From: Escherichia coli
Lineage (GTDB): Bacteria; Pseudomonadota; Gammaproteobacteria; Enterobacterales; Enterobacteriaceae
Length of the DNA: 38,099 nt
Assembly (NCBI RefSeq): GCF_003334335.1
Contig: NZ_QOWQ01000042.1
Reading direction: 5' to 3' (one strand)
A program made the translations under genes and the position numbers. Numbering within the stretch: position 1 is the stretch's first letter; every line of letters begins with the position of its first letter. Below the pieces are notes generated by a model. That model worked only from the letters and a program-made list of their open reading frames with translations. It was not told where the DNA came from and did no database searches. Shown piece after piece: positions 18,497 to 22,330 of this stretch.

Positions 18497-20569
18497 ATGA
18501 GCGCTGATAAACAGACTTTTGCACTACACTGCGAAGCAAAAAACGATAAAGTCAGAAAACGCCTTGGCATCAAAGGCGGTTTTTTCTGGACCGAGGCCAG
18601 AAAACTTTCTGTCGCAGTTTCCCGCTGCATTGCAGCCATGGACGATGCAGGCTACGACGAGGATGATTTCAAAAAACCCGTTCGCGTAAATTTCCCCGTC
18701 GTGAATGACCTTCCACCGGAAGGCGTGTTTGATACTGAATTCTGCAACCGCTATGAAAAAGGCGGGGAAGATGGCATCACCATGATGGCTATATCCTTCA
18801 ATGACAACATCAACGGTGAAGATGCCACAACTGCTGGCGATGACAACGATGACCCGGACGGAACTATTCCGGATGATGTGGAGAAAAGCGAATCCCCGGA
18901 CAGCGACGATGACTGTTCTGAGTGTGAAATTCCCGTCGCCACTCTGAGCCTTACTCATCGCTTCCTTCACCTCTTCTTCTTCAGCAAGGATGAAGATGGA
19001 AAATACCGGCATCACGCCACACCAGAACAACGCAATAACGTGATCCGTATGGAGATGGACACAGAGGACAGTTACCTTCAGAGCCTGCTTACTGCTGTGC
19101 GCGCCGCGCATCATGAACTGGATAAACTGACGAACTATCACCTTAGTCGCCTGGCTGAATCTGTAGGGAAAGCATTCCCCCACTCTGCAAATCATCGCAT
19201 CAGCCCGGCTGAATTCGACAAGTTCATTTCCACCTGGATGAAAACTGACTACCTTGATCAGGGCCTGCTGACAAAAGAATGGCAGAACGGAAATTATGTT
19301 TCAGGCATTACCCGTACGCCTTCCGGTGCTAACGCTGGCGGCGGAAATATTACCGATCGTGGTGAAGGATTCAAACATGATAAGACATCACTCGCACGAG
19401 ATGTAGCCACCGGCGTTCTGGGCCGTTCAATGGATGTGGATATTTATAACCTGCACCCAGCACACGCAAAACGCGTTGAAGAAATCGTGTCAGAGAATAA
19501 GCCGCCCTTTTCTGCTTTTCGCGACAAATTTATCGCCATGCCCGGTGGGCTGGATTATTCCCGCGCCATTGTGGTGGCTTCCGTGAAAGAAGCACCAATC
19601 GGCATTGAGGCCATCCCGGCACGCGTGACTGAATATCTCAACAAAGTGTTGACCGAAACCGATCACGCTAACCCGGATCCGGAAATCGTGGAAATTGCCT
19701 GCGGTCGCTCATCAGCACCGATGCCGCAGTGCGGAACAGCAGAAGGAAAACATGGCGATGAAGAAAAGCAACAAGCATCGGACACAATGGCTAATGAACA
19801 GGCAGCGCCTGAATCAGTGGAAGAAATTCCAGTTAAACATAATGAGGACACGCAATCACTGGAAAATGTCTCATCTGTAGAAACGAAATACCAGGAACTG
19901 AGGGAGGAACTCAATAAAGCCAGGGAAAACATCCCCCCAAAAAATCCAGTCGATGCCGACAAATTACTGGCTGCCTCGCGTGGAGAATTCGTTGAAGGCA
20001 TCAGTAACCCTGCTGATCCGAAGTGGGTGAAGGGGATCCAGACTCGCGACACTGAGGACCAGAATCAGTCCAAAGTGGAACAAATTGCCCCAGAAGCGGG
20101 ACAAAACAGCCCGGATACGCAACAAAACGGGCCAGAAGAGCAACAGCCAGGGCCAGTAATGCAACAGGAAGTGGAAAAGGTTTGCACCACATGCAGTCAG
20201 AACGGTGGCGGCCATTGCCCTGACTGTGGTCCAGTAATGGGAGATGAAACTTACGCTGAAACTTTTGGAGAAAATGACGCCGCTGATGGAGAAGAATCAG
20301 CACAAACTGAGGAGAAGATCATTCAGGAAAACTCTGTTGATGCCGCTCAGGAGGGCGAAACCGTTGTTCAGAACGAGCCAGGCAGTGATACGTCCGGCGA
20401 TGACGCCAATTCTGAGCCAGTAACTCTCGACTGGAAAAGACAGCTCGTGATTGCCGCCGTCTATGGTTTGTGCGCCAACCCCGCATGTATAGCCACAGCG
20501 CCAGCAATCCCTGATATCGCCATCATGATTGCCAACAGGCTTGAAAATTTCGGAGGTGATAAATCATGA
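18497..20569 (+). CDS. RecE N-terminal-region-like protein lacking the C-terminal nuclease domain
   Basis: 690 aa. [40 protein letters not shown]...[31 protein letters not shown] resembles the non-catalytic N-terminal region of Rac RecE as recalled. Stop overlaps the gam start. Confidence 0.5.
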
Positions 20570-20862
20570 ATGCCTGGCTTATCCCCGATCGCATTGAAGA
20601 GCAGTCATGGGCACGACACTACCAGCAAATTGCCCGTGAAGAAACTGAAGCTGAGCTGGCAGACGACCTGGAAAAAGGTCTGCCCCAACACCTGTTTGAA
20701 TCGCTATGCATCGATAATCTGCAACGTCACGGGGCCAGCAAAAAAGCTATTTCCCGTGCATTTGATGACGATGTCGATTTTCAGGAACGCATGGCAGAAC
20801 ACATCCGCTACATGGCTGAAACCATCGCCCGTCACCAAATTAATATTGATTCAGAGGTATAA
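20566..20862 (+). CDS. gam: Gam (RecBCD inhibitor, short GamS-length form)
   Basis: 98 aa; ...[40 protein letters not shown]... matches the lambda Gam C-terminal 98 residues as recalled. Confidence 0.9.
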
Positions 20863-20867
20863 AACGG

Positions 20868-21653
20868 ATGAGTACAGCACTCGCAACGCTGGCAGGGAAG
20901 CTGGCTGAACGTGTCGGCATGGATTCTGTCGACCCACAGGAACTAATCACCACTCTTCGCCAGACGGCATTTAAAGGTGATGCCAGCGATGCGCAATTTA
21001 TCGCATTGTTGATCGTCGCCAACCAGTACGGCCTTAATCCCTGGACGAAAGAAATTTACGCCTTCCCTGACAAGCAGAACGGCATCGTTCCGGTGGTTGG
21101 CGTTGATGGCTGGTCCCGCATTATCAATGAAAACCAGCAGTTTGATGGCATGGACTTTGAGCAGGACAATGAGTCCTGTACATGCCGGATTTACCGCAAA
21201 GATCGCAATCACCCGATCTGCGTTACCGAGTGGATGGATGAATGTCGCCGCGCACCATTCAAAACCCGCGAAGGCAGAGAAATCACCGGACCGTGGCAGT
21301 CGCATCCCAAACGGATGTTACGGCACAAAGCCATGATTCAGTGTGCTCGCCTGGCCTTCGGATTTGCTGGCATCTATGACAAGGATGAAGCCGAGCGTAT
21401 TGTCGAAAATACTGCATATACTACAGAACGTCAGCCGGAACGCGACATCACCCCGGTTAACGAAGAAACCATGTCGGAAATTAACGCCCTTCTTACTTCC
21501 ATGGAAAAAACGTGGGATGACGACCTGTTGCCGCTCTGTTCCCAGATTTTTCGCCGCAACATTTACACATCTTCAGAACTAACACAGGCTGAAGCTGTGA
21601 AGGTTCTTGGATTCCTGAAACAGAAAGTCACAGAGCAGAAGGTAGCAGCATGA
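20868..21653 (+). CDS. bet: Bet (Red-beta single-strand annealing protein)
   Basis: 261 aa; near-identical to lambda Bet over the whole length as recalled. Confidence 0.95.
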
Positions 21654-22330
21654 CACCGGACATTATCCTGCAACGTACAGGGATCGACGTGAGAGCTGTC
21701 GAACAGGGGGATGATGCGTGGCACAAATTACGGCTCGGCGTCATCACCGCTTCAGAAGTTCACAACGTGATAGCAAAACCCCGCTCAGGAAAGAAATGGC
21801 CTGACATGAAAATGTCCTACTTCCACACTCTGCTGGCTGAGGTCTGCACGGGTGTGGCCCCGGAAGTTAACGCCAAAGCCCTGGCATGGGGAAAACAGTA
21901 CGAGAACGACGCCAGAGCTCTGTTTGAGTTTACTTCCGGCGTGAATGTTACTGAATCCCCGATCATCTATCGTGACGAAAGTATGCGTACAGCCTGCTCT
22001 CCCGATGGTTTATGCAGTGACGGTAAAGGCCTTGAGCTGAAATGTCCGTTTACCTCCCGGGATTTCATGAAATTCCGGCTCGGTGGTTTCGAGGCAATAA
22101 AATCAGCTTACATGGCCCAGGTGCAATTCAGCATGTGGGCGACGCGAAAAGATGCCTGGTACTTTGCCAACTATGACCCACGTATGAAGCGTGAAGGCCT
22201 GCATTATGTCGTGGTCGAGCGGGATGAAAAATACATGGCTGGTTTTGACGAAATGGTGCCAGAGTTCATCGAAAAAATGGACGAGGCACTGGCTGAAATT
22301 GGTTTTGTATTTGGGGAGCAATGGCGATAG
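21650..22330 (+). CDS. exo: Exo (Red-alpha 5'-3' exonuclease)
   Basis: 226 aa; matches lambda Exo as recalled; overlapping stop/start with bet. Confidence 0.95.

Follow-up and report, generated by a model that had tools for sequence, protein, structure and literature searches.

A nuclease-less RecE N-terminal region ending in a conserved tail precedes lambda-type gam, bet and exo genes in an Escherichia coli prophage

The question raised by this locus is what the N-terminal region of RecE, the exonuclease VIII of the Rac prophage, might do when it is encoded without its nuclease domain and directly ahead of the Red recombination genes of phage lambda. The gene concerned lies in a window of 38,099 nucleotides, the whole stretch of DNA that was analysed, from the Escherichia coli contig NZ_QOWQ01000042.1, and all coordinates below are window positions. 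The initial annotation had described it as an open reading frame (ORF) of 690 residues left free-standing where a Rac-like recE-recT module was joined to a lambda Red module. Analysis of the locus identified the product as a nuclease-less RecE paralogue made up of approximately 590 residues of RecE N-region, an acidic linker and a conserved helical tail. Its gene, referred to here as the RecE-N/tail gene, opens a compact cassette that is completed by gam, bet and exo.

In BLASTP the 690-residue protein aligned with residues 50–555 of the 866-residue K-12 Rac RecE at 52% identity (E = 4e-177), and in a conserved core at residues ~240–410 identity was far above this value, with most positions identical. 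It is thus homologous to the non-catalytic N-terminal ~590 residues of RecE and lacks the C-terminal PD-(D/E)XK 5'-3' exonuclease domain (RecE ~606–866) by which an exodeoxyribonuclease VIII is defined. The NCBIfam exonuclease VIII model (NF007259) was matched only at positions 1–598 of 877, scoring 730 bits against a curated cutoff of 1269, and PHROG 607 only at profile positions 1–618 of 883 (E = 2.9e-259). Exonuc_VIII (PF06630) at residues 55–197 (E = 2.6e-10) was the sole Pfam family present, with no nuclease family among the Pfam matches. A phmmer search of the PDB sequences returned no RecE chain, including the nuclease domain 3H4R, the one solved piece of RecE; neither the N-region nor the tail resembled any solved fold. 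An AlphaFold2 (AF2) model built from 16 sequences was confident for residues 1–100 (alpha/beta) and for residues 145–270 and 290–380 (both helical). The last segment common to this protein and the full-length RecE proteins is a Zn-ribbon-like motif. The claims of the initial annotation that the ORF resembles the RecE N-region and carries no nuclease domain were both confirmed in this manner.

With Rac the locus further shares the Zn-ribbon, the upstream kilR context and the place in the early left operon before xis and int. It differs from Rac in that the nuclease domain is replaced by a 45-residue tail and in that no recT lies directly downstream, where gam-bet-exo is found instead. The first ~57 residues of the protein and residues ~100–210 are of another allele type. 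Sequences of this kind are already present in public databases, either under the enzyme name or flagged as pseudogenes. The names exodeoxyribonuclease VIII and pseudogene missing C-terminus are both misleading, the former because it implies an activity that a nuclease-less protein cannot have. No published description of the RecE-N/tail-gam architecture was found in the literature.

The segment that takes the place of the nuclease domain was characterized by alignment of relatives. All members of ~690 residues ended in the same segment, while the acidic linker before it varied freely. Three types of tail were distinguished, namely type A (the window), type B with its variant B2 (84% identity to A) and type C (protein P0127, ~58%), and 19 positions were invariant throughout. 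The tail of types B and C starts exactly where the crystallised nuclease domain starts, with RecE-like linker running up to the boundary (marked by a slash: ...DETGEVAD/PVIVEDIEPG in RecE, ...DKTGEVAD/IALTNLTWKQRL in P0127). Over 43 codons, the type A tail of the window and the type B tail of locus L005 differed at 19 of 30 synonymous sites and at 8 of 99 nonsynonymous sites, which corresponds to a synonymous divergence (dS) of ~1.4 and a ratio of nonsynonymous to synonymous divergence (dN/dS) of ~0.06. For gam in the same pair this ratio was 0.14, above that of the tail. In the tail dN/dS was 0.05–0.2, as opposed to the value near 1 and the lost reading frame that mark a pseudogene. Such strong constraint at a dS above 1 shows that the tail is old and selected at the protein level. 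The RecE-N/tail protein is therefore not a bare truncation but ends in a conserved and selected element. The initial claim that the ORF is a RecE N-region without a nuclease stood, and the selected tail and the wide distribution described below go beyond it.

The tail was confined to this family. In 1.84 billion representative proteins scanned in full with HMMER it occurred nowhere but at the C-terminus of RecE-N proteins or their fragments, and a tblastn search of 50,697 phage records recovered it only from four RecE-N/tail phages (six records). Several candidate origins were rejected. Descent from the first strand of the nuclease domain, suggested by a PGIxxxIxN resemblance, was examined by Smith-Waterman alignment with the RecE boundary, which scored no better than shuffled sequences (z = 0–0.8); a weak signal for a P0114 segment (z = 3.3, reached by 3–4 of 500 shuffles) did not hold up from one tail type to another. 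An origin as part of a small stand-alone gene ahead of gam in a donor phage was dismissed as the tail was found only in the RecE-N family. Two short matches (P0121, P0122) are taken for remnants and not ancestors because residues of the RecE linker are still present in them. Derivation from lambda kil or from the GamL extension was dismissed as well, there being no DNA or protein similarity; lambda-like sequence upstream of the gam ATG amounted to the last ~20 nt and was restricted to type C. In the variant L004 lambda-like sequence begins ~20 nt ahead of this ATG. As a separate observation, type B tails (L005 8023–8055; L094 ~3630–3662; P0123–P0125) terminate in an acidic stretch and then, as their very last residues, (M/L/I)-P-(N/D)-F. 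These ends, DDEYMPNF, SDERLPDF and DDEHIPDF, resemble the C-terminal tip DDDIPF of SSB and are encoded by codons that overlap the gam start in another frame. Types A and C are without them.

The three genes that follow are orthologues of lambda Gam, Bet and Exo in the order gam-bet-exo (Table 1), so that the downstream part is a lambda Red module, as proposed. Order, spacing, overlaps and the ribosome-binding site before the start of the short form of Gam (GamS) are those of lambda. The stop codon TGA of the 690-residue ORF (20567–20569) overlaps the gam ATG (20566–20568) as ATGA. The initial annotation had pointed to this overlap and to the GamS start, and both were found as described. The GamS-size start is however normal and nothing special, given that a 98-residue Gam is annotated in phage BP-4795, with kil and cIII upstream, and that lambda has an AGGAG ribosome-binding site at the same position before its GamS-start ATG. 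The difference from lambda lies upstream of gam. Where lambda has kil, cIII and a possible 40-codon GamL extension, the RecE-N/tail gene of the window reaches to the GamS start and is itself preceded by a Rac-type kilR and an ORF of PHROG 2016 (function unknown) in place of kil and cIII. This ORF (128 residues, 18003–18389, + strand) fills the slot of racC in Rac, directly upstream of the RecE-N/tail gene, and occurs at the same position in L005, L006 and phage PhiR5_2; it shows no similarity to RacC and was rejected as its homologue.

Alignment of the window with Rac recE and with lambda gam-bet-exo located the joint between the two parts. Similarity to recE DNA extended from the start of the ORF to ~20260, just past the Zn-ribbon, and ended there for every recE gene compared. 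Similarity to lambda DNA extended over 20587–22328, that is from codon 8 of gam to the end of exo, and was absent between 15362 and 20587. With 83% DNA identity to Rac kilS/kilR at 17436–17933, these boundaries support the suggested joint of a Rac-like recE-recT module with lambda Red. DNA identity to K-12 recE was ~75% at 19239–20265. It rose to ~100% from 18677 to ~20000 in comparison with a full-length relative (L032, P0114 type) and from 18677 to ~19400 in comparison with a K-12-type recE-recT locus (L031). From this near-identity to both it follows that the N-region is being swapped by homologous recombination between prophages that differ downstream. In most variants the C-terminal modules join just past the common linker motif ...ETGE.... 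In the Rac-like prophages L004 and L093 the gene order is kilR, RecE-N/tail, gam, bet, exo, ralR, DUF1187, xis and int; in such backbones the tail-gam-bet-exo block lies in the exact place of the Rac nuclease domain and recT, between the N-region and ralR/DUF1187. The architecture arose by in-frame module swapping.

In order to compare the C-terminal modules, 80 IMG/VR loci encoding the N-region were classified, 9 of which end at a contig boundary before this module is reached; the loci are mutually related and their counts do not represent independent events. A tail was found in 35 loci and was accompanied by gam in each of them, 32 having bet and exo as well, 2 being cut by contig ends and 1 having a Sak4-like ATPase. 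The RecE-type nuclease was found in 10 loci, all with recT, and a DUF3799-type nuclease in 11, of which 10 had their own RecT type. In the remaining 15 loci the module was an Rv2179c-like DEDDh 3'-5' exonuclease, with no annealase and no gam in any of the 15. The class of the C-terminal module was in this way strictly tied to the genes that follow. The RecE N-region is portable, with four or more different modules serving as its C-terminal partner.

The two last-named classes share the N-region with the window gene and differ in what follows it. The 'RecE' of the Gifsy, mEp237 and P0114 type (~960–1050 residues) carries a nuclease domain, is partnered by an annealase and is without tail or gam; P0114 was 89% identical to the window protein across its N-terminal 88%, with ~100% DNA identity over 1.3 kb. 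The prophage 'exonuclease' of the O157 and CFT073 type (~805–847 residues) also shares the Zn-ribbon and the ETGE joint, but its C-terminal module is a 3'-5' exonuclease that is followed by neither annealase nor gam. A study of O157 prophages treats systems of the Exo VIII type and of the lambda type as alternatives (PMC2669165). Members of the DEDDh class, 805–847 residues long, were recorded at L037, L040, L042–L045, L058–L067 and L084–L085 and in Citrobacter phage Chris1 (L092), with excisionase and integrase genes directly downstream and no annealase. Judging by partial DNA matches, this class together with related ones may be present in roughly a thousand complete E. coli genomes.

The RecE-N/tail arrangement was not restricted to the window. 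More than 110 protein clusters of 680–700 residues from E. coli and Shigella, named exodeoxyribonuclease VIII or RecE family, covered the query end to end at 77–99% identity. Among 5426 complete E. coli genomes, 106 (~2%), those of O104:H4 strains included, had tail-coding DNA, which was always chromosomal and always adjoined gam. In the same set gam was found in 3080 genomes, so that most gam genes have no RecE-N partner. The module is also carried by four temperate phages (six records), namely PhiR5_2 (99.9% identical, listed host K-12 MG1655), phiSTEC1589-Stx1c, Shigella 75/02 Stx and POCJ13, and the order of tail gene, gam, bet and exo recurred in two other prophage backbones. On this evidence the arrangement is an old and widespread family and not a joint private to the window. 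In one variant (L094 1722–5039 of strain CFSAN029787; L052) a 365-residue AAA ATPase (PHROG 1366, weak Sak4-like match) lies downstream of an intact RecE-N/tail gene and gam, with no bet-exo. The L094 tail gene is an intact ORF of 646 residues which the Prokaryotic Genome Annotation Pipeline (PGAP) nevertheless labels as pseudogene 'missing C-terminus', and the variant was found in 10 complete genomes. Since gam is kept there without bet-exo, it is Gam that constantly accompanies the tail, and neither Exo nor Bet.

Table 1. Positions of the cassette, of segments of its first gene and of the kilR homologue in the window. AF2 confidence is given as predicted local distance difference test (pLDDT).
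Feature	Position	Strand	Evidence
RecE-N/tail gene (690 aa, pI 4.55)	18497..20569	+	ORF; RecE N-region, no nuclease domain
N-terminal alpha/beta domain, aa 1–100	18497..18796	+	AF2 pLDDT 72–92; partly in Pfam PF06630
Conserved helical core, aa 146–410, including invariant 15-residue loop	18932..19726	+	AF2 pLDDT mostly 73–89; near-invariant columns
Zn-ribbon-like CxxC...CPDC motif, aa 563–590	20183..20266	+	Invariant C563, C566, C574, C577; weak Pfam DZR matches in relatives
Hydrophobic helical tail, 43–45 aa, replacing the nuclease domain	20426..20554	+	Conserved across types A, B, C; dN/dS ~0.06
gam Shine-Dalgarno sequence GGAGGT, within the final tail-gene codons, 8 nt upstream of the ATG	20552..20557	+	Read from sequence
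gam (98 aa, lambda GamS size)	20566..20862	+	84% identity to lambda Gam 41–138; Pfam Gam in related loci
bet (261 aa)	20868..21653	+	94% identity to lambda Bet; TIGR01913, 168 bits vs cutoff 77
exo (226 aa), lambda-type 5'-3' exonuclease	21650..22330	+	96% identity to lambda Exo
Rac-type kilR homologue	17680..17919	+	PHROG 294 Kil; 83% DNA identity to Rac kilS/kilR region

Further features of the surrounding prophage were recorded. Its integrase gene is followed by a 5'-truncated dmsB-type gene (profile positions 25–161 of 161) and by dmsC (22891–24646). As the dmsB-type gene is truncated directly after the integrase, the prophage is placed in the gene for the B subunit of dimethyl sulphoxide reductase, and the same insertion site is used by L005 and L006. 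The left operon is a mosaic in which a lambda-like oL/pL region (15083–15362, 89% to lambda) is succeeded by non-lambda genes and then by the Rac-like kilS/kilR stretch. An ORF of 238 residues after the N-like gene (15956–16672, + strand) belongs to PHROG 2539 (function unknown), and its central Zn-finger segment weakly matched endonuclease VII, HNH and Lar-like restriction-alleviation families. An ORF of 253 residues (14313–15074, + strand) matched the PADLOC model of the BstA abortive-infection protein across residues 120–237 (E = 2.5e-20); it lies directly downstream of an S24/LexA-like repressor gene (13568–14281), a position typical of prophage BstA genes. Rfam matches on the minus strand at 3290–3499, 3775–3968 and 7609–7807 comprised two tandem copies of the STnc100 small RNA and a C4 antisense RNA with isrK and c4-a1b1 targets, an antisense immunity element of the P1/P7 type.

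What the RecE-N/tail protein might do was considered in light of these results. Both the full-length ORF and the tail are kept under purifying selection, and the gene is carried by functional temperate phages. The one functional lead in the literature is that full-length RecE, unlike the nuclease domain alone, is reported to greatly enhance linear-linear recombination, the function of the N-region being called unknown (PMC11611040; PMC11610958). The reading we tentatively prefer is that the RecE-N/tail protein may be a non-catalytic accessory factor for DNA-end processing or single-strand-annealing recombination, with the tail as an assembly or docking element. The N-region would then be an autonomous module acting wherever DNA ends are processed, and the RecE-N/tail protein would provide in trans what the N-region provides to RecE in cis. 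As an assembly element the tail would take over from the ring-forming nuclease domain, either associating with itself or docking on a partner, and the protein would modify recombination by Red or the control of nucleases. The first candidate partner is Gam, the sole neighbour that never changes. A more far-reaching and more doubtful proposition is that the N-region could be a portable end-handling effector, acting with three kinds of exonuclease in cis or with Gam/Red in trans through a docking or oligomerisation tail. The tail protein would in that case form complexes with Gam or with itself and alter the abilities of lambda Red, for example by allowing efficient linear-linear recombination or extended nuclease inhibition.

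Several points weigh against an accessory role of this kind. The link between tail and gam could simply reflect the physical overlap of both genes. The Sak4 variant (L094, L052) demonstrates that lambda Exo and Bet need not accompany the tail, and frameshifted copies of the tail gene exist (L093). AF2 modelled the tail as three short helices at low confidence (pLDDT 50–57), and a single-chain chimera of tail, linker and two Gam copies had a mean pLDDT of 36, which is unusable and provides no evidence on contact between tail and Gam. Finally, Fu and co-workers reportedly found in 2012 that a RecE N-fragment expressed apart from the nuclease domain gave no rescue of linear-linear recombination. 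Should that be so, the protein could act in trans only if its tail restored an association.

An alternative to a recombination role is that the protein acts as an anti-nuclease or anti-defence factor, its acidic N-region mimicking DNA or binding a host nuclease or defence protein. It would then travel with nucleases and Gam as host-takeover functions. Gam, the constant neighbour, is a DNA-mimic inhibitor of RecBCD, and the 690-residue protein is itself very acidic, with a pI of 4.55 and four long acidic linkers. Lar/RalR restriction alleviation and Kil are found among the neighbours in related prophages, and the DEDDh class occurs without any annealase. The best conserved parts of the protein are however its folded domains and not the acidic linkers, and the N-region of RecE is documented to influence how recombination turns out (PMC11611040). 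The 690-residue protein also had no match in PADLOC, a weak objection as PADLOC covers defence and not anti-defence proteins. Altogether an anti-defence role is considered unlikely.

Less likely again, and about equal to each other, are two explanations that centre on the tail. In the first, the tail would be a C-terminal membrane anchor or re-entrant hairpin that holds the acidic N-region at the inner membrane for a role in exclusion, DNA entry or host takeover. It is the sole strongly hydrophobic stretch of the protein (Kyte-Doolittle 19-residue maximum 1.75), has an Eisenberg mean hydrophobicity of 0.47–0.59 with a very low hydrophobic moment, contains small-xxx-small patterns and is flanked by basic residues (WKRQ). 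This hydrophobicity is nevertheless borderline for a transmembrane helix, AF2 gave three short helices and not one long helix, and the domains that the tail replaces are soluble nucleases. A membrane span is possible but not favoured because an invariant N and P lie mid-tail and because type C adds the polar residues T, Q, D and E. In the second, the tail would dock the N-region non-covalently onto the lambda Exo trimer, so that a RecE-like enzyme is assembled from two polypeptides. The N-region is covalently joined to an exonuclease in the three other classes and exo lies downstream in 32 of 35 tail loci, but intact tail genes are accompanied by gam and the Sak4-like ATPase without exo in L052 and in the 10 genomes with the L094 variant.

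The view that a single illegitimate recombination truncated recE and left a functionless ORF to hitch-hike in a transcribed operon would account for the mosaic DNA joints, the frameshifted copies (L093) and the pseudogene flags given by PGAP to some copies, yet it is strongly disfavoured and very improbable in the face of a tail dN/dS of ~0.06 at a dS above 1 between types, a reading frame kept through three tail types and several linker types, an ORF of 680–700 residues kept in more than 110 clusters and an L094 'pseudogene' that is in fact intact.

The preferred reading remains that of an accessory factor for DNA-end processing or annealing. Should the more far-reaching proposition of a portable end-handling effector be true, ~600 residues of RecE, without explanation ever since the gene was sequenced, would at last have a function. 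In reviews from 2023 the N-terminal two-thirds of RecE are still given as being of unknown function, even though it is this part that has made full-length RecE/RecT the preferred tool when DNA is cloned directly by linear-linear recombination. The RecE-N/tail family is a natural separation-of-function allele, that is an N-region without nuclease or RecT which is kept by selection and is paired with lambda Red, and it makes the question of the RecE N-region directly testable in a Red background. The gene might also improve Red recombineering, provided that the linear-linear activity transfers. For the lambdoid prophages, C-terminal modules of four kinds exchanged at a single linker are a clean example of in-frame domain shuffling.

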